A stretch of DNA of 64,000 nt from the IMG/VR virus record IMGVR_UViG_3300021375_000006. One strand, 5' to 3'. Under the pieces are notes generated by a model that made no database searches, was not told where the DNA came from, and was given only the letters and a program-made list of their open reading frames with translations. The translations under genes were made by a program, and so were the position numbers. This document shows, piece after piece, positions 6,173 through 26,095 of the stretch. The stretch's first letter is position 1; each line of letters begins with the position of its first letter. The DNA comes from a virus. Taxonomy: Duplodnaviria; Caudoviricetes.

Positions 6173-7930
6173 TTATAGTGGCCAAATCATGGATGTGCCT
6201 GCATCATGCCATTCACTATACCACCCTTTTTTATTAAGTTCCTTTTCCCATTTGTTATCTACACCAAACGTTCTGTTCTTGTAGTCTTCAGAATAGTAGT
6301 CATAAATTTCTCTACCTTTATACTCATCGCCATTCTCACCTGAAACCCAGATACCACCTTGAGAACCGTTGAACTCTTCAGTAGTTCTTACAAAGTCCAT
6401 ATACTTTTCGATCCACTTAATCATAGCGTCTCTATCAAGTTTCTTTTCAGTAATAGGTTCTACAGATTCAAATGCAACTTCTTTATCAACTATTTCAAAA
6501 CTAACTGAATTATGAATACTTGTTTTTCTCTTCTTTTCTTTACCTTTACTTATTTCAACAAATGCTTCTTGTCCTCCAACTTCACCAGCAACTCTTTTAT
6601 AGAAATAACCATGCTCTGTTTTGATATATTCACCTACATTTACACTCATTGCCTCAGTAACTACAGATTCTGCAAATGCCTCAATATCCCACTGGATTCT
6701 TTGCATTGGGTCATCGTATGGGAATTCTTTCTCTACCCAGTCAATTAGACCTGGTTCAAACTCAGCGTTTTGAGCCATATCAAAAGCATTCTTCCAGCCA
6801 TCATTAGACGCTACATCCTCTAACCACTGGTCATACTTCTTTTGATTCCATCTCTTCATGGCTTTCTTTCTGTTCTTCTCAGCCTCTTTCTTCATGGCAT
6901 CTAATTTAGCCATGTCTGCTCTTCTAAGCTTATCTTGTCTTAGTCTGATTAGAACAGGATCGTTATAGTCCGTCGCCTCTGTCATCATTTCCTCTTGAGC
7001 GAACTTGTTATACTCTTTTGACCACTTCTTCCATTCAGCTGGAGTAGCATAATCTTCTAATACATCAACTACATCTCTGTTACCTTTTTGTTCAATAACT
7101 TGGTCTGCAATCCATCTACCTGCTTTTGCATTTAAGTAATAAAGTGCGCCTGCATCAGAGAATTTGTAAGATTCAGTTAACCATGCCATTGCAGAATGCC
7201 AGTTATCTTCAATCTCTCTACGTTTAAAACCTGCAAGTTCTAATGTACCCCAGAAACCATAGGCTTCATTTACATCGTCGATTGAGTATTGATTTTTCTT
7301 ACCGAACTTAAATGCTTCATTAACTAAAGATTCGCTAACAAAATTATTAAATTGTGTAAATAGTTTAAATCCTTCCATCTCTAGTTTCTTTTTTGTTTTG
7401 TCTTTTTTAGCCTCCTCTTCGTCATCATCAATATCTGCTACTGAAGGTACATCGCCAGAACCTATACCGCCATCAGAAGGTAGAACCACAGGGCCCATAC
7501 CGCCTATATTAGCACTAGGTGTAATATTTTGTGCTGCATGTGCAAAATCTTCATCCACAGCAACACCTCTCTTTTTTAAGATCTTTTCAATTTCTTGGTA
7601 AGCTCTCTTGTAATCAGATTTAGAGTAGTGCATTCCTTTAGCATAGTTAGCATAACCATCTAATGCTCCGTTATACATTCCTAGTAATTCTTCATCTGAC
7701 ATTTTATCATTGAATACAAATGGTCCAATAAATGCTTCATCTACCGTCTCTGGTAGTTTATCATGTTTTGTAGAAGCGTATTTCTTTAAGTCTTTCTTTG
7801 TCATTCCGTCTGATAATGATTTTACTTTGTCTCTATAAGCTGGGTCGATGTCTGAGATTTCCATATCACCGGATTTAACAGCGTATGCCATTCCCATTAA
7901 TCTTTGTTGTGACTTACTTACAGATGGCAT
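6173..7930 (-). CDS. Modular putative internal-head polyprotein with an N-terminal DUF3008-like domain
   Basis: N-terminus MPSVSKSQQRLMGMAYAVKSG...KKYASTKHDKLPE is DUF3008-like. Small domains are separated by VDE/VNE/MTE/VTE/ITE linkers, and there is an internal FTQFNNFVSESLVNE motif. Confidence 0.55.
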   Translation of the reverse strand: MPSVSKSQQRLMGMAYAVKSGDMEISDIDPAYRDKVKSLSDGMTKKDLKKYASTKHDKLPETVDEAFIGPFVFNDKMSDEELLGMYNGALDGYANYAKGMHYSKSDYKRAYQEIEKILKKRGVAVDEDFAHAAQNITPSANIGGMGPVVLPSDGGIGSGDVPSVADIDDDEEEAKKDKTKKKLEMEGFKLFTQFNNFVSESLVNEAFKFGKKNQYSIDDVNEAYGFWGTLELAGFKRREIEDNWHSAMAWLTESYKFSDAGALYYLNAKAGRWIADQVIEQKGNRDVVDVLEDYATPAEWKKWSKEYNKFAQEEMMTEATDYNDPVLIRLRQDKLRRADMAKLDAMKKEAEKNRKKAMKRWNQKKYDQWLEDVASNDGWKNAFDMAQNAEFEPGLIDWVEKEFPYDDPMQRIQWDIEAFAESVVTEAMSVNVGEYIKTEHGYFYKRVAGEVGGQEAFVEISKGKEKKRKTSIHNSVSFEIVDKEVAFESVEPITEKKLDRDAMIKWIEKYMDFVRTTEEFNGSQGGIWVSGENGDEYKGREIYDYYSEDYKNRTFGVDNKWEKELNKKGWYSEWHDAGTSMIWPL

Positions 7931-7931
7931 A

Positions 7932-8474
7932 TTATTTTCCGTCTATTTGAATAACTTCGTTATCTCTAATTTCAAGATTGTTGTTACCAACTGATTCATC
8001 ATATTCACCGTAAATAACTTCACTTTTAGATGCTAATGGAGAATTCATCATTCCAGTCTTATCTATTTTTCTAGCGAATTTTTTACCGTTAACATCATCC
8101 ATAAAGCCTACGTTAATTACTACTTCGTATGAAAGATATAATGTGTTGTCCGGGTCTATATCATTTAAACCATTAACCTCATCTATAGCGAATCCATTAA
8201 AAAGATTGGCAGTAACAAATAAGATACCATCCATGCCACCTGCTCCTTTTTCTACTTGATCTAAAATGATCTTCTTAGCTTTATCTTCAAACTTAGCCCA
8301 CTCTTTATTAACTTCTTCTTGAGTTACTACATTAATACCTTCGTATTTTACTGTTTTAATTTCTTGTTTAAACGCTTGCATTACTTTACCTACAAGACCT
8401 TTAGCCGCGTAGATACCAGTCATTCTATATGACTTCTCGTTTAGGAATTGTTCGAATGTTGGAATTGTTTTCAT
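7932..8474 (-). CDS. Putative capsid-targeted protein, 180 aa
   Basis: Starts MKTIPTFEQFLNE, compared with the T4 capsid-targeting sequence MKTYQEFIAE. Confidence 0.55.
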   Translation of the reverse strand: MKTIPTFEQFLNEKSYRMTGIYAAKGLVGKVMQAFKQEIKTVKYEGINVVTQEEVNKEWAKFEDKAKKIILDQVEKGAGGMDGILFVTANLFNGFAIDEVNGLNDIDPDNTLYLSYEVVINVGFMDDVNGKKFARKIDKTGMMNSPLASKSEVIYGEYDESVGNNNLEIRDNEVIQIDGK

Positions 8475-8491
8475 ATCTTATATTAGTTTTA

Positions 8492-10864
8492 TTACCAAGC
8501 GTAATCGAACTTCTCGATCTTGTTTATTCTTTCTTTAATTTGTTTCGCGTAGTTCTTAGATTCTCTTTCGTAGTAAGATTCTTTTTCGCCATATCTAGCT
8601 TCAGATTCTTCTGCTTGTCTAATGTAATCTACATATCTAGAATAGTCATCTAAAATATTTGACATGTGTTGAGATGCATCTTTTGCTTTTACTTCTTTAC
8701 CTTTTGCGTTTTCACCAATTTTGATTTCTTGGTATCTAGTCTTCTCACCTTTTGCTAAACCATCTGAGATTTGCTTAGCCAGTTTATCGATTGCATCTGC
8801 TACCATTTTATCTAGTGGTAAGCTTGCAGCTTTATTAGCTAAGATCTTGTGGTATCTATTTTGGTTAGCCTCTTTAAAGTCTTTATCAGATTTGAATGCT
8901 GTTGCACCGGCTTTAGCTTCTGCTCTTGCACTTCTTAATTGGTCAGTAGAATACTTTTGTCTAATTAATTCTAGGTTAATAACAATAACTCTATCGGACA
9001 TCTCTGCAATTCTCTTACCGTTGTTAAGACCTGATGCACCCCAACCCCTGTATTTGTGGTTGATACCGATTTGACCCTCAGAACCTTTTTTCTCTTTAGA
9101 CCAAGATCTACCACCTGACCATCTTGACCATTCATTAGCATAGAATTGTCTGTCACCAGACATAGCTGCTAATACAATACCTCCACCAGGAACCATTTTA
9201 TAGTCATTCCATGATCCGTTGTTATGGTCATAGTATGGATTTTCTTTCTCGTTATCTGAGATAAAGAAAAGTACGTGGCTTGAACCGCCGTAGTTTTTAA
9301 ATATCTTTGATACATCGTTGCTAATAATAAAATCTTCATCTTCGATTTTATCAAGAGCTACTTTAGATAGGTTGTAAAAACCTTTAGCTAAATTAGAAAG
9401 ATTTTTCTTACTTTCTTTACCCTCTCTACCGTTCGATAGAACTGTTCTTAATATAGAGGATTTGATTGCTTCGTTAAGAAAGTTAGCTCCAACGAAGTCG
9501 CTAAATGACTCAAACAAGTTTATTTCGTTTTTCATATTTGTATTTTCTTCTAGTTTTTTAGCAGCTAAATCTTTATCTCTTTTGGATACGTTATCTAGGT
9601 AAGAGCCGTCTCCCCAGAATTTAACAACTAATTCAGTTTGAGTAGTTGAATGCATACCTGGTTTGTAAACTGCAATATCTCTTAATTTCTTGTTAGAAGC
9701 AATGGTTTGCTTCATGAAGTCAAGAGCTTGTTTCTCGTTTCTAAACTTTTTCATAGCACTTACACCGTCACTATAGATAACTTCATAGTTTTCAGTAACT
9801 GCAGATTCTTCTAAATATAAGTTTACATATTTACTACCTTTTTCTGAGTAAATTGAAGTAATTTTAAAATCACCTTTAATTGATTTACCAGTATCTTTTT
9901 TATACCAATCTGCATAATAAGCTTTAAAGAATAAGTTTGGTTCTAGTTCTCCAAAGAAGTGTGAAAGTTTACCTAAATAAAATTCAGCTTTAGGATATAC
10001 TTTTAAAATATCTTTTTCTGTTTCAGCATCTAGAACTGCTTTATCAAATTCTTTTACAAATTTAGCTTCAGTAACTTTTGACTCATCCACTCTCTTGATA
10101 GTATCGTGGAACCAATCTTCTGGCTCATCTCTATAATCAGTGTAAACATCAATTTCCCATTCATCACCGAATTGGTCAACGCCAACATAATACCAATCTT
10201 TGCCCTCGTTACCGTGGTCGTCAATAATATCACCTTGGTCAAACTCTACTTCATACTTCTTACCACCATCTTTAAATTCAATATATGGGAATTTATCTTT
10301 AGTAACTTTGATCTTCTCGTTTACTACTGACTCTTCGATATACTCGGCTAAATCTGGATCGTCCCATCCAAGTTCTGGATCTGCTAGTACTTTTTCAAGA
10401 TCCTTTCTCTTACCCTGCATTGTGATAACTGGAGTACCACCGCCTGGACCGTCCATTACTTTATTGATAATCTTAACTTTATTCTTCTTTAAGAATTTTA
10501 AGAAGTCTTTATCATCAGGGTTAATTGCATCCATCTCTACTGTAGCCTCAAATACCTCAGCAGCTTTAGGAGTTTCATCTAGCTCAGCTAGAATTCTACG
10601 TCCCCATTTTGAAAGCTTTACACCATCTTCAGAAACATTAAAGTACTTTCTATTTCTAGAAGCCCATTGATTTGAACTAGTAGATAATTCAGAAAGAATC
10701 TTATTGAATTCTTCTCTTGTTACCACGCCATCTGCAATTGCCTGTAAGACTGCGTTTCTTACGCTAGCAGTTTTACCTACAGTTTGAGCAGGGTGGTTCT
10801 CTGTATATTTTCTTTTGATTTGCAATTTCTTGCCTTCCGATAAAAAGTCTTCGAAGTTTATCAT
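8492..10864 (-). CDS. Modular putative internal-head polyprotein, 790 aa
   Basis: Starts MINFEDFLSE; linkers ESVVNE, ESKVTE and ESAVTE; internal LFESFSDFVGANFLNE. Confidence 0.55.
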   Translation of the reverse strand: MINFEDFLSEGKKLQIKRKYTENHPAQTVGKTASVRNAVLQAIADGVVTREEFNKILSELSTSSNQWASRNRKYFNVSEDGVKLSKWGRRILAELDETPKAAEVFEATVEMDAINPDDKDFLKFLKKNKVKIINKVMDGPGGGTPVITMQGKRKDLEKVLADPELGWDDPDLAEYIEESVVNEKIKVTKDKFPYIEFKDGGKKYEVEFDQGDIIDDHGNEGKDWYYVGVDQFGDEWEIDVYTDYRDEPEDWFHDTIKRVDESKVTEAKFVKEFDKAVLDAETEKDILKVYPKAEFYLGKLSHFFGELEPNLFFKAYYADWYKKDTGKSIKGDFKITSIYSEKGSKYVNLYLEESAVTENYEVIYSDGVSAMKKFRNEKQALDFMKQTIASNKKLRDIAVYKPGMHSTTQTELVVKFWGDGSYLDNVSKRDKDLAAKKLEENTNMKNEINLFESFSDFVGANFLNEAIKSSILRTVLSNGREGKESKKNLSNLAKGFYNLSKVALDKIEDEDFIISNDVSKIFKNYGGSSHVLFFISDNEKENPYYDHNNGSWNDYKMVPGGGIVLAAMSGDRQFYANEWSRWSGGRSWSKEKKGSEGQIGINHKYRGWGASGLNNGKRIAEMSDRVIVINLELIRQKYSTDQLRSARAEAKAGATAFKSDKDFKEANQNRYHKILANKAASLPLDKMVADAIDKLAKQISDGLAKGEKTRYQEIKIGENAKGKEVKAKDASQHMSNILDDYSRYVDYIRQAEESEARYGEKESYYERESKNYAKQIKERINKIEKFDYAW

Positions 10865-10866
10865 AA

Positions 10867-11250
10867 TTATGCTTTAATTTTTGCTAGTTTACCCTGTTTC
10901 TCTTCATACTGGAATGAGAACTTAGACTTTGCGAAAAGTGTTCCCATTGAGAATGAGACATAAACTCCGTCTGGTTTTTTCATAGCAGTCTTATATGCTT
11001 CTGCTGCAGCAGCCTCATCGTCAAAAATACCAATGTATTGTTTCTTGCTACCACCATTCTCTAGTCTAATTCTTTGACCATAGAAGTCTACTTCATTGTG
11101 AGCAAATACTAAATACTTTGTATTACCTTTTTCTGGTAGGTTGTCGCTATGCTCTCCAAATGAAGTTCTATCATTGTAGTAGTAAGAACCAAATTGAATA
11201 GACTCATTTACTGAATCTCTGAAGCCTTCGAATGTTTTTATGTTTTTCAT
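10867..11250 (-). CDS. Putative capsid-targeted protein, 127 aa
   Basis: Starts MKNIKTFEGFRDSVNE; late-type motif GAATATATA at 11271-11279. Confidence 0.5.
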   Translation of the reverse strand: MKNIKTFEGFRDSVNESIQFGSYYYNDRTSFGEHSDNLPEKGNTKYLVFAHNEVDFYGQRIRLENGGSKKQYIGIFDDEAAAAEAYKTAMKKPDGVYVSFSMGTLFAKSKFSFQYEEKQGKLAKIKA

Positions 11251-11269
11251 ATTAATATGCTATATTTGT

Positions 11270-13129
11270 TTATATATTCTTTAAAAAATCATCGAAGGTT
11301 AGGAATTCTGGTTGTGCAGATTCTGCAGCAACACCCATCGAGTCTTCTAATTTCATTTTAAGTTCTCCATACATACCATGTATATCCTTAGGAGTTAATT
11401 TCTTAAATAGTCTTTCGTCACCATCAAGCATTGCGTTTCTAACCTGAGTTGCTGAAATATTCTTGCCTGATCTTGGAATTTCAAATAAACCAAAATCGTC
11501 TCTTACACCTAGATCGTCTCTGTATTCTTGTTTATCTGCTTGATAACTATAGACTTTCATTCTATCAGTTCCAGTTCCCCATAATACTGGCTCGTATTGT
11601 GGTCTTAATTCATTAAACATTTTATCAATTGCTGCAGTAGGTAAAATCTTTACATCTTCAATTGGATAAGAAGATTTTAATTTTTGTAACATTGATAGTT
11701 GAGTCTCTTCGTCGTAAGGTCTCTTGAATGCATCTTCTGCTTTCTTAGTTTTAGACTTAATTAAAAAGATAACTACTGGATAACCGTTTTGTTTATAGAT
11801 AGTTTCAATAACTTTAGCGTGTCCTAATGTAAATGGTTGAAATCTACCAACAAACATATTTACAGGCTTCTTACCTTGATCTTTATACTTAACAGTTAAG
11901 CCTTCCATGATTGGACTAACTTGAGCTGAAATTTTTTGGTTTAATAAATATTGTTTAAAATCCATTACGTCTGATTCATTTGCTTTTGCCATTATTAAAC
12001 CCTCAATGGTTTCAACGATCTCGTTGATCTGCTCCATTAAATCTTTATTAATAAGGTCGGTTTCTTTAGTTCTCTTTTTTCTAAAAGAGCCTAATACAAT
12101 CTTAAATAACTCAGATAATATCTTATCTTGTACTAAAGTAAGTGTCTTTTCGTTTTGAATAAACTTATTATTTAATTCAAACATAGGAGATTCAGAAAAG
12201 TCTGCAGAGTCAAATTTAGCACCAATATATTTTGTAGCATTTTTTTCTACATAATTATTAAAAATAGATGACATTAATTCTAAATATCTTCTATCTACCT
12301 TTCCTTCTTTTAATTCTATTGATGAGAAATCAAATTGTACTAAATGTTCTACAACATCTAAAATTGTAATTTGATACATGTCTGATGGTTTTCTTGGATC
12401 CATCGGTTTTTTATTAAACTTCTCTAATTTAAAAGATTGTAATTCTGTTCCGTCATGAAAATTAATAATAAACCCTGCAACATCTTTTGAAAGATCGTTC
12501 ATTAAAGCAGATTGCTTCATATTCTCATTAAAAATACCGAATACTGTTCTTGTAAAGCTAGGCTTCTCAAAGTCTTCAAATGTCTGTTCAAATTCATTAA
12601 CCGACATTGCAAGAATTTGTTTTAATCTATCCTTTTGACCTGAGTCAAGTTGACCTTCAAATAATATAGGTGGTTTTGAAACATTTAGTTTATCCGCCCA
12701 CTTATTAAGTATTTTGGTATCTCTAATTACCTTTCTAACTTTATTAGGATTAGATGGTTGTAAAACTTGTATATGCGTTAAAATTAAATTTGATTCTGGT
12801 AAAACATCATACTCCACATCAATTGTTTTATTATCGCCAAGATATTCAAATCCAAACTTCCAGTCAAATGGCATATCTTCTATAACTTCTTTAGAAACAG
12901 ACTTAAAGTGGCGAATTGCGTTCTCATAGTATCTGACAATTGTACGATCTACTATATCCATTGGTTGCTTAGAACCAGATTTATAGTATGCAAAATCAGT
13001 ACCTTGTCTTCTTGCATGAAAAGATGAACCGTTGATTTTCTCAGTCACAATACATTTGTGGTTAAGTAGTTTATCAACGTCTGCTGTGTTAGCTCCTTCG
13101 AAATATGTTTTTAAATTGTCTAATGCCAT
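11270..13129 (-). CDS. RNA-ligase-like nucleotidyltransferase domain fused to an HIGH-family cytidyltransferase-like domain
   Basis: N-terminal VTEKINGSS (ligase motif I variant). C-terminal FVGRFQPFTLGH and RSGKNISATQVR (HIGH/KMSKS-like motifs). Confidence 0.7.
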   Translation of the reverse strand: MALDNLKTYFEGANTADVDKLLNHKCIVTEKINGSSFHARRQGTDFAYYKSGSKQPMDIVDRTIVRYYENAIRHFKSVSKEVIEDMPFDWKFGFEYLGDNKTIDVEYDVLPESNLILTHIQVLQPSNPNKVRKVIRDTKILNKWADKLNVSKPPILFEGQLDSGQKDRLKQILAMSVNEFEQTFEDFEKPSFTRTVFGIFNENMKQSALMNDLSKDVAGFIINFHDGTELQSFKLEKFNKKPMDPRKPSDMYQITILDVVEHLVQFDFSSIELKEGKVDRRYLELMSSIFNNYVEKNATKYIGAKFDSADFSESPMFELNNKFIQNEKTLTLVQDKILSELFKIVLGSFRKKRTKETDLINKDLMEQINEIVETIEGLIMAKANESDVMDFKQYLLNQKISAQVSPIMEGLTVKYKDQGKKPVNMFVGRFQPFTLGHAKVIETIYKQNGYPVVIFLIKSKTKKAEDAFKRPYDEETQLSMLQKLKSSYPIEDVKILPTAAIDKMFNELRPQYEPVLWGTGTDRMKVYSYQADKQEYRDDLGVRDDFGLFEIPRSGKNISATQVRNAMLDGDERLFKKLTPKDIHGMYGELKMKLEDSMGVAAESAQPEFLTFDDFLKNI

Positions 13130-13137
13130 AATAGTTT

Positions 13138-14409
13138 TTATCTACCGTATTTAATAATACCCATTAACTGGTTAATAGCGGCAAAAGTTCCAGTTAACTT
13201 GAATGTTTTACCATTGTATTTAAAGACTAGGCCTTCTGTTGGAATGATTGACTCAATACCGCCGATACCTTCTAGTCTCTTTAATTCTTTTTCTACTTTC
13301 TCAATTTGTTTTAGATCTCCGTTCTTTTTAACTTTGTCAGCTTCAGTTCTGATTTGCTTATGTAATCTTGCTTTCTCAGCCTCTGGGTTAGCAGCAACAA
13401 AATTAGAAACGTTCTTTAAAACATCTGCACCTAATTCTAAAAATAGGTTCTCGAAAGGTAGAATGTTTTCTTTATACTTCTTATTTCTTTGACCATCAAA
13501 ATCTTTGACAGCTTTTGCTTGTTCTGGAGTAACTGCTTTCTTTAAGTCTCTCATATTTAGAGTCTTCTTGTCTAAGTATGCCCATCTTAATAGAAGTCCT
13601 TCTTTTAATACTGGGTCTAAATCCCCAAAGTTCTCTTCGATTTGGTTTCTCCACCAAGCCTCGTGATACATTTTAACCTCATCTTGATCTGATAGACTAT
13701 AAGTATCTCTTAGTTTATTTATCGCCTTTTCGTAATAGCCGACTCTCTCATCAAAGTTAATATCTTTTCCTAACTTTAAAATTTGAGGGGGAATTATTGT
13801 AAAGGTCTTTTGCACATCAGCTTTTAACTCTCTAAGTGCTTTTACAATCTCACCTGCAATATTCTCTTCACCTATGATATTACCAGCACCATCAGTAACT
13901 TTCATACCGTGGAATTGAATAACATCTCTGTCATAATAGATTACATTAGGATTCTTAGAGTAAATTAGCTCCATGTTGATAAATGAGTTACCATCTTGGA
14001 ATACAGATTGGTCCTTAAGCTTTGGGAGCGCATCTGCTAGATCTTTAGCAGCAAAGATAAATGTTTCTTCAACCAGCTTTGAAGCATGGCCAGTAAACAT
14101 CTTAATGATACCATTTAGGTCGAGTGGATTAGCTAGTTGCCCTTTATTTCTAGCGAACATAGCTTTACCATCTTTTACAGTTGCAAATACATTCTGACCA
14201 TCTGTCTTTTCAGTTGGTGCCTCTTCAAAATCAAGACCTCCTTGTAGTGCAGACTTTACAATTCTCTTGAAATCTGCAAACGTTAATGAGTGGTCATCGA
14301 ATGGGTGCATCATGTGACCAGCGGCACCACCTTCAAATACGAAATTGTCCAAGTTATTGACCTGGACTTTCTCGTTTAAGAATTCTTTAAATGTATATAG
14401 TTTCTTCAT
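13138..14409 (-). CDS. Ligase-fold (KxDG) nucleotidyltransferase-like protein with a capsid-targeting N-terminus
   Basis: MKKLYTFKEFLNE; EGGAAGHMMHPFDD; motif I TEKTDGQN; motif IV/V EGLVFKYNGKTFKLTG. Confidence 0.55.
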   Translation of the reverse strand: MKKLYTFKEFLNEKVQVNNLDNFVFEGGAAGHMMHPFDDHSLTFADFKRIVKSALQGGLDFEEAPTEKTDGQNVFATVKDGKAMFARNKGQLANPLDLNGIIKMFTGHASKLVEETFIFAAKDLADALPKLKDQSVFQDGNSFINMELIYSKNPNVIYYDRDVIQFHGMKVTDGAGNIIGEENIAGEIVKALRELKADVQKTFTIIPPQILKLGKDINFDERVGYYEKAINKLRDTYSLSDQDEVKMYHEAWWRNQIEENFGDLDPVLKEGLLLRWAYLDKKTLNMRDLKKAVTPEQAKAVKDFDGQRNKKYKENILPFENLFLELGADVLKNVSNFVAANPEAEKARLHKQIRTEADKVKKNGDLKQIEKVEKELKRLEGIGGIESIIPTEGLVFKYNGKTFKLTGTFAAINQLMGIIKYGR

Positions 14410-14428
14410 AAGAAGTTTTAGATTGTTT

Positions 14429-15967
14429 TTATCCTAATGATGATTGTAATGCACCAACTGCTGCACCATAGTCACCGTCGTGTTTAGTTAATAAACCGTC
14501 TACTACTTCTTGAGCTTTTTCTTCATCGAATTCGTCACCGAACGCTTGTTGTAAAACTGAGAATGCATACTCTTTAAAATCTTCGTCTGATTTTACTTCA
14601 GCTTCGTTAGTAGCTTCTTCAGCAACTTCTTCAGTTTCTTCTACTTCTTCAGTTTCTTCTACTTCTTCAGTCTCTTCAACCTCTTCAGTTTCTTCTACTT
14701 CTTCAGTCTCTTCAACCTCTTTAGTTTCTTCTACTTCTTCACCTTCTTCAGTAGCTTCACCTTCTTCGTGGTGTGCTTCTTCAGTAGATTCTGTTTCTTC
14801 TTCAACTTCTTCTCCCTCTTTAATTACAGGATAAGTCTTACCGTTAAACTCAAACTTTTCAGCATCTTCTTCGATTGCTTTAGCTCTTGCGGCTAAAAAA
14901 GCGTTACCTTCATTCATCACAGACTCGTTAGCCCAGATTAATTCAAATGCATCTACAATTTTTTGAGCAGTATCACCATGTCCGAATCCATCTAAGAATA
15001 ATGCCATACCTTCAACGATACCAATACCTGACCATCCAGCTGCATTAGCTAGACCAGAGTAATGTTCGTCTAATAGGTTAATGATTGATTTTTTACCAAC
15101 TGGAACTGACATTCCACCTAAATTATCGATGTCTACCATAATAGTAACAATCTTACCACCTAGTGCTTTACTTACTGGATCTCTATATCTGTGGAAGTTA
15201 GCGTCTGTTAGGGCTTCAGCTAATAAGTATCTACAAACACCTAATAAAAGTGGTCCGTCCATTAATGCAGTATGGTTCGTAAAGAATGATTCTAACCATT
15301 TAGCAACTTTCTTAGCGTCTCTTGCATTACCTTTACTTGGTTTAAATGCTTCATTAATAATTAGTGACTCAAATGCTGGAATTAATTCTTTATCTCCATA
15401 TACATCTGCCATATACCATTTGCCATCTCTTTCATCAAATAGGTAAACGAATTCTGCTCCTGCTCTATCGCTAGCATCAGAAATATAATCGTCGACTTTC
15501 TTAACATCACCTTTTAGTGTTGTTTTATCTCCGTAGAAATTAATCTTACTTGGATCTGCTTCCAAACCTGAGCCACCCCCTTTCTTAAGTAAAAACTTAA
15601 CTGTTCCGGAGTTCATGTAACCCTTCTTAATTGTAGGTAACATGTGGTCTGGATAACCATCGTAGTGCATATACACTGACTCTATTTTTCCTCTTTTAGA
15701 AATAATACCAACTTGTGATCTGGTACCTTCTTCAATGATAGCTAAAGACTCAGATACTTCAGAAGCACCTAGCTTAGCAAAAAATTTGTTTCTATCTTCT
15801 TCGTTTAAATCTTTTACAGATGTAACGCCGAACTCAGATAATAATGTTTCGAATTGGTAAGCTGACTCTGTACGAGCTACTTTTTGTTCTTCTTCTAATT
15901 TCATTTTTGCTGCTTTAGCGGAAGCATTAGCGAAATCTTCAAAAGACTGTAGTTTTAATGAACCCAT
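14429..15967 (-). CDS. Modular putative internal-head / scaffold-like protein with a Glu-rich repeat
   Basis: MGSLKLQSFEDF; a domain GTRSQVG...VYMHYDGYP of a type common in phages; linkers ESLIINE and ESVMNE; (EETEEV)n tract. Confidence 0.5.
   Translation of the reverse strand: MGSLKLQSFEDFANASAKAAKMKLEEEQKVARTESAYQFETLLSEFGVTSVKDLNEEDRNKFFAKLGASEVSESLAIIEEGTRSQVGIISKRGKIESVYMHYDGYPDHMLPTIKKGYMNSGTVKFLLKKGGGSGLEADPSKINFYGDKTTLKGDVKKVDDYISDASDRAGAEFVYLFDERDGKWYMADVYGDKELIPAFESLIINEAFKPSKGNARDAKKVAKWLESFFTNHTALMDGPLLLGVCRYLLAEALTDANFHRYRDPVSKALGGKIVTIMVDIDNLGGMSVPVGKKSIINLLDEHYSGLANAAGWSGIGIVEGMALFLDGFGHGDTAQKIVDAFELIWANESVMNEGNAFLAARAKAIEEDAEKFEFNGKTYPVIKEGEEVEEETESTEEAHHEEGEATEEGEEVEETKEVEETEEVEETEEVEETEEVEETEEVEETEEVAEEATNEAEVKSDEDFKEYAFSVLQQAFGDEFDEEKAQEVVDGLLTKHDGDYGAAVGALQSSLG
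14625..14740. repeat. 18-nt tandem repeat encoding EETEEV, about 6 units
   Basis: Unit acttcttcagtttcttct with synonymous variants, seen directly. Confidence 0.9.
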
Positions 15968-22415: not shown

Positions 22416-23114
22416 TTAGTCTGGCAAATTTTCCCCAAGTTGCTGAAGCAAATAATGATTAAGGAACCAGGCATCGACAATGTCATCAAAAGGCTTCGGC
22501 ACTTTTTTCACCTCACCAATTTCTTTCTGACAGTAAGCAAACAACGGCGAGCTAGCTAACTCATCACTCTCACATACATTATCTAAAAAGGATTGCCAAA
22601 GAGCTAACTTATTCATATTCCCTTTACCAGCATGTTTCTTAATTGTAGTAGGTGCAACGGTCAGTAGATTTTTGACGTCGAGCTGAGCAATCATTTGCTC
22701 TTTTAGAATAGCAGCTCCTGCAGCCATATCAATCATATTATTAGTTCCCATTTTAGAACCGTATGACGTACCTTCAAATGCAATATGATAATCTTGTTTA
22801 GTCTGCGTTATATTAACGATCAGGTTAATAATATCATCAGCAGTCTTAATGTATCTCTTGATTTTTGCGAACTCGTTCTTAGAGTAATCTCCAACAACTA
22901 ATTTCCAGTCAGGTTGATGAACTAGAGTCACGTCTGAGAATGTGCTTATTTCTTCTTGTCGCTTTTGTTCAGCTTTCGTACCTGAACCAGCTTTAATATA
23001 GGAGATAAAGTGATACCTATTCGTGTCAGATGACCAGATACAGATACCAGGGGAATTAAGCGAGAAGTCAACAGTAACTAAATTCAAATTAGAATCTTTT
23101 ACCCATCGCAGCAC
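22416..23114 (-). CDS. ruvC: RuvC-like Holliday junction resolvase
   Basis: VTVDFSLNSPG, IAFEG.SYG, VAPTTIKKHAGKGN and DDIVDAW carry the RNase H-fold acidic residues. The true start may be internal. Confidence 0.75.
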   Translation of the reverse strand: MLRWVKDSNLNLVTVDFSLNSPGICIWSSDTNRYHFISYIKAGSGTKAEQKRQEEISTFSDVTLVHQPDWKLVVGDYSKNEFAKIKRYIKTADDIINLIVNITQTKQDYHIAFEGTSYGSKMGTNNMIDMAAGAAILKEQMIAQLDVKNLLTVAPTTIKKHAGKGNMNKLALWQSFLDNVCESDELASSPLFAYCQKEIGEVKKVPKPFDDIVDAWFLNHYLLQQLGENLPD

Positions 23115-23460
23115 CTAGAGCGGCACCGACTAATCTGGAAGTTAATAGATCGTAGAATATACCTTTTTGAATACCTAGTACTTTGGCTAACATCTTACCG
23201 ATAGATTTTCCTAGTGCAAAACCAGTTAAACCACCGATGATAGAACCTAAAAGACCCTCTTCAACTAGATCTTCTTCTAATCTATCTAAATCAAATTCAC
23301 CAGTCTCTTCATTTAAGTATTGTTTCACAAACTCTTCTAGAGCTTGGTCAACTTTTTCCTCTAATTCAGGAGTCCACTCAGACTGTAGGCCTTCTGTTAA
23401 TAGAGCCATATCAGTTTCTGTGAGTTGTTGTTCAACTAAGTAATCATTAAATGTTTTCAT
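23089..23460 (-). CDS. Capsid-targeted precursor: acidic N-half plus Gly-rich cationic amphipathic C-half
   Basis: MKTFNDYLVE start; C-terminus GLLGSIIGGLTGFALGKSIGKMLAKVLG...; GATATATA at 23465-23472. Confidence 0.55.
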   Translation of the reverse strand: MKTFNDYLVEQQLTETDMALLTEGLQSEWTPELEEKVDQALEEFVKQYLNEETGEFDLDRLEEDLVEEGLLGSIIGGLTGFALGKSIGKMLAKVLGIQKGIFYDLLTSRLVGAALGAAMGKRF

Positions 23461-23474
23461 AATGTATATATCGT

Positions 23475-24026
23475 TTAATCTATTTCTAAATCTAGGCTCA
23501 TCTTATTGTAAACAAAAGTACATTCAAATGTAGAAAAGTCAGCTACATTTTCTGACATATTTAGATTTAACTCGTTAATAGAGTTTAGTATTATTTTTTC
23601 AAATTTCATAAAAGCAACAGAACTGCCTTCTGCATCTAGAATCCTTAAAGTAAATGGTTCAATATAAGGCTCTTTAGTAGTTCTTGCATAATAGTATAAT
23701 AGAGTGTCCATCATAATCCAATAGTTAATAAAACCATCTAGTAACTGGAAAGTAACTGTAAATTCTCTTGTTATTGTATTTTGGATTGGGACTGCGCCTC
23801 TATGGTATCTAGTTGTACCGTCATTATCTGCTTGAGTAATTGGGTCAAATGTAATACCAGGAATATTAATCCCTTGGATAGAATAGTTAACAAAATCCAC
23901 TGGCTCTGCTAACAGTCCACCTGGAATTCTGTTTAAATACTTTTTGTACTTATCTACAACTTCCTCTGGAATAAACTTTCTAGGAAATCTAAAATCGTAT
24001 GCGTTATTTCTACTATTTAAAATCAT
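23475..24026 (-). CDS. Tail tube-fold protein (T4 gp3/gp19-like, tail completion)
   Basis: YSIQGINIPGITF...FTVTFQLLDGFINYWIM...LRILD...FECTFVY pattern. Confidence 0.55.
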   Translation of the reverse strand: MILNSRNNAYDFRFPRKFIPEEVVDKYKKYLNRIPGGLLAEPVDFVNYSIQGINIPGITFDPITQADNDGTTRYHRGAVPIQNTITREFTVTFQLLDGFINYWIMMDTLLYYYARTTKEPYIEPFTLRILDAEGSSVAFMKFEKIILNSINELNLNMSENVADFSTFECTFVYNKMSLDLEID

Positions 24027-26095
24027 TATCCAAGAGTAAATTTACCTTTAGTAACCATAGATTCATCAACACCGTTATCTAAACTAATATAGAAATCTCG
24101 GTTTTGCATACCTCTAATCGAATTTGCATTTTGTTCGTTAATCTTAAATAAGACTTCACCTTTACCCATATCAATATCTTTATTATAGACATGGTTAAAC
24201 TTTAATTTAGATTTACCGTCATTAAAAGTTAAAATAACTAACTCAGCGTTTTCAAAAGATACTAATTCGAAATCATCACCTCTTTTCTTTGCAATCACAA
24301 ATTTAATATATGTAGAAAAAGGAGGGATTGTGATTGATAGATCTCCCTCGTTAACGAAATCAGAAGTATCAAACTCTTCAACCTCTTTTAACATCTCATT
24401 ATTACCTGTACCTGTAAGTTCTACTTTAGCAGAAGAAGCAATTACATTATGTCTTTCAATAAATGTAGGCACGTACTTTGTTGATCTTGGTAAATTATCT
24501 GTAATAAAACCAGAGATCGTTTTGTTAGAAGTTAAACTAGGTAAAACGTTGTAAACTTCCGTCAATATATTTGGGTTGTCAATTTTAAGAGTAGATAATT
24601 TCTTGCCATATTTAGCTGGGTAGTTTACTGTTAAAGCTGCTTTCTTTACAATTTGAGTATTATCTGTTTGATTGTAAATTCTCATCGTCACATCGATCGA
24701 GAAGTTAACCGCAACATTAGCATTTTTAATCACAGGTCTAAAGACAATAGGTGTACTAAAGTCTTCATATTGTGTAAATGTAGTATCTGATGTTTTAATA
24801 AAAGACGTACCCACTTGTTCAAATACTTCAATGTCATATATTACAACAATGTCATCTGAGCTGGTTTGAATTCTATTTAATATATTACTTTCAAAGCCGG
24901 AAATTGAATTATCTTTTTCTCCGTAAATATTAAAGTAATCTCCATCTTCAGCATCTTCAACTACTACGGTAAAATCAGAATACTCATCTTCTCTAGAAAC
25001 TGTAAATTTATTCTCTTCTCCGGTATAGACATAATCAAAACCTGCTATAGTTTCTAATCTATCTAGTAGTTTAAAATTAATACCATAATTAGCAAGTGGA
25101 TTTATATCACTAGTATTAAGAGTACCATCACCATAAAATCTATCTAAGAACTCTTGGTTCTGTCCGATTAATGATGGGATTTTAATATTAATATATTTAG
25201 ACCAAAGTACTTCACCTAAAATAAATGGTTTAGGATTTGAAAATTCATAGTTACTTTGATTTAAGTAGACTAGTTGAGTTAAAAAGTTTTTAATACCAGT
25301 GTTTCTTTCAGTAGTTACCTCGAATAGAAAACCTTCATAACCTCTTGCTGCAAAACTAAATCCAGATCTTAAGTGTAGTCTAACTGTATCATATTGGATA
25401 TAGTTAATATTTTGAGTTGCTTCAGTCTGATAATTTAATAAATCGTTTTCTCTAGAACCTGTCCATTCAACTGCATTATTAATAAAATTATGCATTTCAT
25501 AATCTCCGGTAGAGTCGTAACCCAATAATGCATATTTAGTTTTATCGCCACCAGGTGCGTTAATAGCATGGTATCTACCAATAGTCTGATTAAGATCATT
25601 ACCTGTTGCTTCGTCCGGTGAAGCAAATAGAGGGTTAGCTCTAGTATCAACAATAGCTTTACCACCAATTAAACCAGGGTATGAATATTCTACTGTACCA
25701 TTTTGGTTCGGGGTATATTCTGCGATATTAGTTATTGCTGAGAATGAATAAATACCCAATTCACCGCTAATTGCAAAATCAGCTGGATTAGGTAAAGCGC
25801 TTAAATCAAACTTATATGTCTTTCCATTTTGTAGAAGTAAAGTTCTAGCTGCAAAATTCTCAACAGCTAAATAACCAGATATAGATGTCACATCAAAATT
25901 CACTACCGCAGAACCTAACTCATTAATTAAGTGCCTAGTACTGAAAGGATCTCCCTGGACTGTGTCTAAGAACATCACTTCACTACCATTATCGTCTACT
26001 TCTATACGATATGGCTCAGGATTACCCTGGTCGTGGTAGATAAACTCAAGTAAGATGTCTTGGTCTATCTTAAAATATCTGGATGATTGCGCCAT
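24026..26095 (-). CDS. Virion structural protein, 689 aa
   Basis: Beta-rich; translationally coupled within the structural operon. Confidence 0.5.
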   Translation of the reverse strand: MAQSSRYFKIDQDILLEFIYHDQGNPEPYRIEVDDNGSEVMFLDTVQGDPFSTRHLINELGSAVVNFDVTSISGYLAVENFAARTLLLQNGKTYKFDLSALPNPADFAISGELGIYSFSAITNIAEYTPNQNGTVEYSYPGLIGGKAIVDTRANPLFASPDEATGNDLNQTIGRYHAINAPGGDKTKYALLGYDSTGDYEMHNFINNAVEWTGSRENDLLNYQTEATQNINYIQYDTVRLHLRSGFSFAARGYEGFLFEVTTERNTGIKNFLTQLVYLNQSNYEFSNPKPFILGEVLWSKYINIKIPSLIGQNQEFLDRFYGDGTLNTSDINPLANYGINFKLLDRLETIAGFDYVYTGEENKFTVSREDEYSDFTVVVEDAEDGDYFNIYGEKDNSISGFESNILNRIQTSSDDIVVIYDIEVFEQVGTSFIKTSDTTFTQYEDFSTPIVFRPVIKNANVAVNFSIDVTMRIYNQTDNTQIVKKAALTVNYPAKYGKKLSTLKIDNPNILTEVYNVLPSLTSNKTISGFITDNLPRSTKYVPTFIERHNVIASSAKVELTGTGNNEMLKEVEEFDTSDFVNEGDLSITIPPFSTYIKFVIAKKRGDDFELVSFENAELVILTFNDGKSKLKFNHVYNKDIDMGKGEVLFKINEQNANSIRGMQNRDFYISLDNGVDESMVTKGKFTLG

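Follow-up and report, generated by a model that had tools for sequence, protein, structure and literature searches.

The 64,000-nucleotide (nt) stretch of IMG/VR record IMGVR_UViG_3300021375_000006 analysed here (the window) is part of the genome of an uncultured marine T4-like jumbo myophage. One of its genes, P0001, encodes a 123-amino-acid (aa) protein that is probably a capsid-targeted precursor, processed after E10 and E68 by a prohead protease with a Peptidase_S77 (S77) domain. As predicted from its sequence, the protein consists of a T4-type capsid targeting tag, an acidic pro-part and a cationic glycine-zipper tail that would be released as a 55-aa peptide. T4-type tagged, protease-processed head-internal proteins are known; the predicted glycine-zipper product sets this one apart. 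Taken as a whole, a head-internal precursor of a T4-like jumbo myophage was the best explanation of this gene, which we put a little short of an even chance. By analogy with other systems, the freed peptide may be kept in the capsid and then act as a membrane-penetrating ejection peptide, a tentative reading to which we give somewhat less weight. The broadest form of the proposal, which we hold to be doubtful, is that giant T4-like and Lak phages store a protease-activated membrane-penetrating peptide that would be expelled via the tail and would open the cytoplasmic membrane for the genome and the tagged cargo.

A T4-type tag at the N-terminus of the precursor

The first ten residues of the precursor, MKTFNDYLVE, were compared with the tag MKTYQEFIAE, with which T4 IPII and IPIII both start (read from the T4 record). 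M1, K2, T3 and E10 were identical in the two tags, and the remaining positions showed the conservative exchanges Y4F, Q5N, E6D, F7Y, I8L and A9V. In the T4 tag, residues 4 and 7 are the main determinants of targeting and residues 8 and 10 those of processing (PMC9026906, a review of Black's work), and all four of these mapped determinants were conserved in kind in the precursor. Among 141 representatives of the family, 69 started with M-x-x-[F/Y]; these 69 showed K2 in 49 cases, F/Y4 in 69, E/D6 in 63 and E10 in 33. Many of the remaining representatives showed the same tag motif after 2-4 additional residues.

Other proteins were scanned for the tag at the protein level with the motif [TS][FY]x[DEKQNS][FY][LIV]xE, used instead of a strict back-translated DNA pattern, which reached one homologue only. 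All three matches (3/3) in the open reading frames (ORFs) of the window were N-terminal (binomial estimate ~1e-4). LR756500.1, a 462-kb genome of an uncultured phage, gave eight matches, seven of them N-terminal and on different proteins (binomial estimate ~1e-7). The tag was thereby found on several unrelated proteins of the same phage. The sequence-only reading had proposed a capsid-targeting sequence at this N-terminus, and the likeness to IPII and IPIII, the retained determinants at positions 4, 7, 8 and 10 and the tag on other proteins all bear the proposal out.

Features in common with the T4 internal proteins IPI, IPII, IPIII and Alt are a tag of about ten residues, in which positions 4 and 7 are aromatic, position 8 is I/L and position 10 is Glu, and its presence on several unrelated proteins per phage; a gp21-type protease is known here from relatives. 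In the T4 internal proteins, however, processing removes no more than the short tag, and these proteins evolve fast and serve in anti-restriction or in modifying the host. The precursor family is predicted to lose a long acidic spacer as well and would have a tiny, extremely conserved glycine-zipper product. Outside the tag, the T4 internal proteins showed no homology to the precursor.

An acidic pro-part and a nearly invariant predicted cleavage site

Translation gave 22 D/E (manual count) within residues 1-68, which end ...DLVEE, as the sequence-only reading had stated for an acidic segment ending at LVEE. Its description of the remainder was also reproduced: a Gly-zipper-like tail of 55 aa with a single Asp and a net charge of about +6, at 23256-23089 including the stop codon (residues 69-123 at nt 23256-23092, stop at 23091-23089).

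The position of the predicted cut was read from a module alignment of 142 representatives. P1 was Glu in 141 of them and Asp in 1, and P1' was Gly in 130 and Ser in 10. P2 was N, D or E in 129, while P3 was I, L, V or M in 118 and Thr in 20. Preference for I/L at P3 is T4-like, and it is supported by the T4 sites in internal proteins, which read I-A-E/A (a slash marks the cut). Cleavage after Glu is common to the proteases of T4 and of giant phages (PMC5694885). By alignment, the predicted E68/G69 junction follows the T4 gp21 rule and is nearly invariant. A head-protease cut at E68 had been proposed beforehand, and it is supported by the near-invariant Glu, the gp21 rule and the S77 protease of relatives, with one refinement: the window offers both LVE (ending at residue 67) and VEE (ending at 68), of which E68 is the conserved one.

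The junction in the window reads E-D-L-V-E-E/G and fits the linkers of neighbouring polyproteins. These cargo polyproteins (window 6173-15967) carry N-terminal tags and ES-x-V/M-N/T-E linkers. Longer members of the precursor family showed the module behind an ES-I/V-N-E linker ~45 residues upstream, or behind a second internal copy of the tag, a layout that would be the look expected of a terminal 'bead' in a cargo polyprotein.

Over 94 representatives, the pro-part showed a median length of 63 aa, a median net charge of -11 and a pairwise identity of 23%. It contained a mean of 4.97 [LIVM]xE sites against 2.83 in shuffled sequences (1.75-fold), and 91 of the 94 members exceeded their own shuffle mean. 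Long propeptides are cut to fragments small enough for exit from the capsid (PMC5694885), and the enrichment agrees with this idea of propeptide fragmentation. We also considered the pro-part as a folded domain, which was rejected on its poor conservation and poor structure prediction.

The predicted mature peptide: a conserved cationic glycine-zipper tail with a predicted hairpin fold

The Gly-rich residues 69-123 contained 7 K/R and a single Asp (D104), for a net charge of +6. A stripe of small residues ran through G72, G76/G77, G80, G84, G88, A92, G96 and G100, followed by G112, G116 and G120. The tails of the 94 representatives had a median length of 56 aa and a median net charge of +4 (range +2 to +9), and their pairwise identity was 59%, compared with the 23% of the pro-part. 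Residues G76, G77, G80, G84, G88, L95, G96, G100, Y103, D104, T107, S108, R109 and G116 were invariant or nearly so.

AlphaFold2 on the module alignment predicted a helical hairpin with a mean predicted local distance difference test (pLDDT) score of 83 and a turn at residues 96-100. The prediction for the full-length precursor was weak (pLDDT 66), and only the module alignment was usable. Helix 1 opens with 16 uncharged, Gly-rich hydrophobic residues, followed by an amphipathic Lys/Gly-striped stretch in which Lys 85, 89 and 93 flank the Gly/Ala stripe; the hydrophobic moment reached 0.41 at about residues 78-101. Sequence searches of the PDB returned sub-threshold compositional matches only (a prion Gly-rich tract and OpcA), and Foldseek of the hairpin model against the PDB gave nothing below E 3.

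The tail resembles the Pfam families Gly-zipper_Omp (PF13488) and 2TM glycine zipper (PF05433) in its GxxxGxxxG pattern and two-helix layout. Against the PF13488 cut-off of 25 bits, the whole protein scored 22.7 and residues 66-123 alone 25.1. These families differ from the precursor in being cellular envelope proteins, and the cut-off was reached on the excised tail only.

A large family found in viruses only

Homologues of the precursor formed 677 clusters at 90% identity (E<=0.01), many of them from marine samples of Tara, the Joint Genome Institute (JGI) and the European Nucleotide Archive, and the family comprised 270 representatives of 50%-identity clusters; these numbers rule out a chance ORF. 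Relatives were encoded on 198 IMG/VR stretches. Among deposited phage genomes, only LR756500.1 (47% identity) and the more distant Prevotella Lak megaphages carried the gene. Neighbours in the ESM Atlas were exclusively viral hypothetical proteins, the precursor matched no PHROG family, and a scan of one prokaryote genome per species (185,579 species) with the module alignment found no relative and thus no cellular homologue. One homologue was labelled a YeaQ/YmgE-type membrane protein by JGI; apart from that label, no source gave a family name beyond 'hypothetical'. The family is large, virus-only and unannotated.

A close copy of the precursor, in the 101-kb relative G002, was 89% identical. 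At the distant end, the homologue of the megaphage Lak-C1 (L130:3803-4129, 108 aa) reads ...IVDE/GLFTALLG...LLTSRLV... when TAG is translated as Gln. By this sequence match, the family connects marine jumbo phages with gut megaphages, both of which probably have Bacteroidota hosts.

The module stood at the extreme C-terminus in all members, which reached 1176 aa. One fusion form, P0244 (975 aa), lay in a different gene context, and the contigs of the fusion proteins P0209 and P0203 were short, with uninformative contexts. In the metagenomic protein P0143 (360 aa), a signal peptide of lipoprotein type and the Pfam domains 'Scaffold' and PG_binding_1 precede the module, which may reflect either a genuine bacterial-type fusion or a chimeric assembly.

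Prohead protease and gene order in relatives

A Peptidase_S77 protease was encoded on the homologue-bearing contigs of four relatives (G002, G003, LR756500 and Lak-C1). The head module of G002 encodes a gp4-like head closure protein, a gp2-like end protector, the portal, a 112-aa protein, a 728-aa protease with the S77 domain and the major head protein. This is the T4 order of head genes; the T4 series runs sheath, tube, portal, 67, 68, protease. The 112-113-aa protein between portal and protease in G002 (L092:12340-12678) and G003 (G003:4055-4396) is tagged and acidic (MKIIKTFEEFIQE...), with a poly-Glu C-terminus, and matched no PHROG. Its place in the gene order and its composition make it the counterpart of T4 gp67.

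The protease ORFs of G002 (L092:12742-14928) and LR756500 (L083:31-1929) were 632-728 aa long, compared with 212 aa for T4 gp21; the S77 domain occupies their N-terminal end, and a long extension follows it. Such an ORF may be a fused scaffold, with gp21 and gp22 in one gene.

The position of the precursor gene itself gave mixed signals. In Lak-C1 the homologue lay three genes (3.4 kb) upstream of the S77 protease on the same strand, and a 189-aa ORF there was not a tube homologue. In LR756500 the tube gene (48% identical to that of the window) stood directly upstream of the family gene, and tube-sized ORFs held the same place at two distant metagenomic loci (L104 and L131).

Proposed role and alternative explanations

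On the proposed mechanism, the tag MKTFNDYLVE would bind the scaffolding core, so that the precursor is built into the prohead as MKTYQEFIAE does for the internal proteins of T4. The gp21-type S77 prohead protease would then cut after E10, at several [LIVM]xE sites of the spacer and at E68/G69. Before cleavage, the acidic part may keep the tail in solution and prevent it from harming the producing cell; afterwards its small fragments could exit the capsid, and the freed 55-mer, a glycine-zipper helical hairpin of net charge +6 with a new Gly N-terminus, would remain with the DNA. During infection the peptide would exit via the tail ahead of or with the DNA, which is the least certain step and is proposed by analogy only. 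It would insert in the cytoplasmic membrane and help to open a path for the genome and many tagged cargo proteins. A role in lysis, which the sequence-only reading had offered alongside DNA injection, found nothing in its support.

Four lines may point to a membrane role: the glycine zipper, the new N-terminus with its putative likeness to a fusion peptide, the amphipathic Lys helix and the precedents. Repeated GxxxG motifs occur likewise at the N-terminus of Tde1, a type VI secretion system (T6SS) effector, and at the C-terminus of TelE, of a type VII secretion system. After delivery by their machines (the T6SS is related to the phage tail) these zippers permeabilise the cytoplasmic membrane of the target bacterium, that of Tde1 for translocation (PMC10240207), and that of TelE destabilises membranes (PMC10765036). 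Tde1 and TelE differ in being bacterial toxin domains that undergo no proteolytic maturation in a capsid and are not homologous to the phage peptide, whose membrane activity is putative. Maturation cleavage that yields a short amphipathic or hydrophobic peptide stored in the particle, as predicted here, is established for the lytic gamma peptides of nodaviruses (PMC8046363). The animal-virus lytic peptides belong to other lineages and use other entry routes. Adenovirus protein VI and picornavirus VP4 are further membrane-lytic peptides of non-enveloped animal viruses. The new N-terminus of the phage peptide, G-L-L-G-S-I..., may resemble the Gly-rich N-terminus of HA2, the fusion peptide of influenza. 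We know of no capsid-stored membrane-lytic peptide described in a tailed phage, and a literature search was likewise empty; a full-text search found nothing that links glycine zippers with prohead proteases or phage ejection.

Several observations weigh against a stored, membrane-active peptide. The Kyte-Doolittle maximum of the tail was 1.12 over 18 residues, below classical membrane-spanning helices and below the mean of ~>=1.6 over 18-19 residues that marks integral membrane segments. The very strong conservation of the tail is at least as well explained by a protein-protein interface as by a lipid-active peptide, and far exceeds what is usual for antimicrobial peptides. An I/V-G-E triplet, a possible internal cut site, was present inside the module in 14 of 142 members, and comparable small core proteins of T4 are simply degraded (PMC9958956). 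The precursor gene lay beside tail genes, not head genes, in most lineages. The protease is known from relatives only, and no cultured phage with the family gene was found, including by tblastn with a divergent member.

The main rival is a gp68-like component of the prohead core (scaffolding), which would be targeted and cut likewise, with a hairpin that packs with the core, portal or shell, sets head size or shape and is then discarded or inert. It fits the tail equally well as the membrane role does, and the layout of T4 gp68 is the same: 141 aa, with the first ~67 residues acidic (~-13), six [LIVM]xE sites and then a strongly basic tail. T4 gp67 and gp68, like the precursor, are small late proteins with an acidic N-half that holds several such sites and a cationic C-half, and gp68 is a non-essential core protein at ~240 copies (PMC9958956). 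The neighbourhood is related as well, since the precursor gene follows sheath-sized and tube genes, as the head-core cluster does in the T4 order given above, and a tail highly conserved across phages while other parts diverge fits a conserved protein partner. However, although the precursor shares this layout (acidic N-half with sites, cationic C-half, ~120-140 aa), no homology to gp68 was detectable (hhalign of the family alignment against T4 gp68, probability 0.1), and the two tails differ, that of gp68 being Lys/Arg-rich and hydrophilic and that of the precursor rich in Gly and hydrophobic or amphipathic. In T4, gp68 is broken down to small peptides (PMC9958956), whereas the glycine-zipper module, almost without cleavage motifs, should survive whole. 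The gap between portal and protease in G002, the place of gp67 and gp68 in T4, is occupied by the single different tagged protein described above, and no scaffold element is known that consists of a cationic glycine-zipper hairpin. On this balance we regard a core role as unlikely, while ranking it ahead of the other alternatives; if it is true, the family is a widespread new type of prohead-core protein.

An internal peptide that neutralises or organises the packed genome of the giant head, with no membrane role, would account for the positive net charge found across the family, and T4 packs ~1000 molecules of basic internal proteins with its DNA (PMC3012670; PMC9958956). Against such a role, the charge density is low (7 K/R in 55 residues, compared with the Lys/Arg-rich gp68 tail), invariance falls on Gly, Tyr, Asp, Thr and Ser and not on the basic residues, and the first 16 residues of the tail are uncharged and hydrophobic; we judge it improbable. 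Equally improbable is that the protein goes unpackaged and sits in the membrane of the infected cell, for example as a holin, an antiholin, a factor for superinfection exclusion or a membrane tether of the nascent prohead, with the acidic part in the cytoplasm and the hairpin in the membrane. T4 proheads do assemble on the membrane (PMC5694885), the Pfam matches to glycine-zipper membrane families, weak as they are, and the JGI label point the same way, and the module sits at the extreme C-terminus in the manner of a tail anchor. However, the hydrophobicity is below the transmembrane range, the conserved K85, K89, K93, D104 and R109 lie inside the helices, the prokaryote scan gave no cellular homologue, and the T4-type tag and the near-invariant Glu before the module would be left unexplained. 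The prohead protease works within heads, and a tail component or assembly factor (a chaperone, a plug of the tube lumen or a peptide akin to a tape measure) would therefore leave the tag and the protease site equally unexplained. For this last possibility, the order of sheath-sized ORF, tube gene and precursor gene holds in LR756500, L104 and L131, in other myophages tube genes are often followed by a gene for a small acidic chaperone, and Gly-rich hydrophobic segments are common in tape-measure proteins. The Lak-C1 gene, however, lies near the prohead protease and not beside a tube gene, and the 975-aa fusion sits in another context, which makes a tail role the least probable of the four.

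How the DNA of contractile-tailed phages passes the cytoplasmic membrane is unresolved even for T4. If the membrane-penetrating role is true, a capsid peptide that the head protease activates would offer a specific candidate for inner-membrane passage, and one that is easy to test, since synthesis of a 55-mer is feasible. Tailed phages would then also be connected with non-enveloped animal viruses and their strategy of capsid-stored lytic peptides. Whatever its function, the family is a marker of a lineage in which many proteins bear the T4-type tag and which extends from flavobacterial-type jumbo phages of the sea to Lak megaphages of the gut.

Gene setting and other features of the window

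The features of the precursor and of the surrounding window are listed in Table 1. The precursor gene closes a long run of minus-strand genes for baseplate, fibres and tail, and genes for a RuvC-like resolvase, a gp32-type single-stranded DNA-binding protein, a primase and a helicase follow downstream.

Table 1. Positions of the precursor, its predicted parts and other features in the window
Feature	Position (nt)	Strand	Basis or remark
P0001 precursor, 123 aa + stop	23089-23460	-	translation; large conserved family
Capsid targeting sequence, T4-type, MKTFNDYLVE, residues 1-10	23431..23460	-	predicted cut after E10 (L-V-E)
Acidic spacer/pro-part, residues 11-68	23257..23430	-	eight further [LIVM]xE sites
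Predicted maturation cleavage site, V66-E67-E68/G69	23254..23265	-	family alignment
Predicted mature 55-aa cationic glycine-zipper peptide, residues 69-123	23092..23256	-	conserved columns; 59% pairwise identity; Pfam 25.1 bits
Predicted helix 1, residues 66-95	23176..23265	-	AlphaFold2 on module alignment, model residues 2-31, pLDDT 83
Predicted helix 2, residues 101-120	23101..23160	-	Y103-D104-x-x-T107-S108-R109 core + G112/G116/G120
GATATATA motif	23465..23472	-	ends 4 nt before precursor ATG
Tail tube gene, 183 aa	23475..24026	-	phrog_45, E 3e-6; 14 nt upstream of precursor gene
Tagged ORF (...PTFEQFLNE), 180 aa	7932..8474	-	tag motif at N-terminus
Tagged ligase-like protein (...YTFKEFLNE), 423 aa	13138..14409	-	tag motif at N-terminus

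Upstream of the tube gene, a 689-aa ORF (window 24026-26095, minus strand) had the size and position of a tail sheath gene. It showed no PHROG or Pfam match and no BLASTP similarity to T4 gp18, so the label 'sheath' is based on size and position only.

A near-identity DNA search with 8 kb gave no match among phage records. The nearest record was a 31-kb fragment that shared 29% of the sampled 31-letter words of the window, had no protease gene and was rated 11% complete, from which the phage genome would be near 280 kb. A second glycine-zipper module was sought in the window, G002, G003 and LR756500 and none was found; the precursor gene is single-copy.

No Shine-Dalgarno sequence was present upstream of the precursor gene. 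The motif GATATATA occurred in 10 copies in the window, 9 of the 10 on the coding strand and mostly 23-38 nt before start codons, and may be a late-type promoter element. Its total was not above chance (10 against 6.7 expected, with 17 of 100 shuffles reaching 10). The copy at the precursor gene ends only 4 nt before the ATG, so that the transcript would either lack a leader or arise by read-through from the tube gene.

The 423-aa tagged protein of the window has a K-x-D-G motif of the nucleotidyltransferase/ligase type (...EKTDGQN...) as well as the motif GHMMHPFDD. Its homologue in LR756500 (267941-269206; 33% identical) was also tagged (...KSYEEFLNE), which suggests packaging and injection of a ligase-like enzyme. 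The use of the tag on many proteins makes it useful for predicting injected phage proteins. Five more ORFs of LR756500.1 (303, 257, 491, 94 and 210 aa; 197835-201793, 265653-265937 and 317088-317720) were tagged from residue 6 and provide a candidate list of the packaged proteins of that phage.

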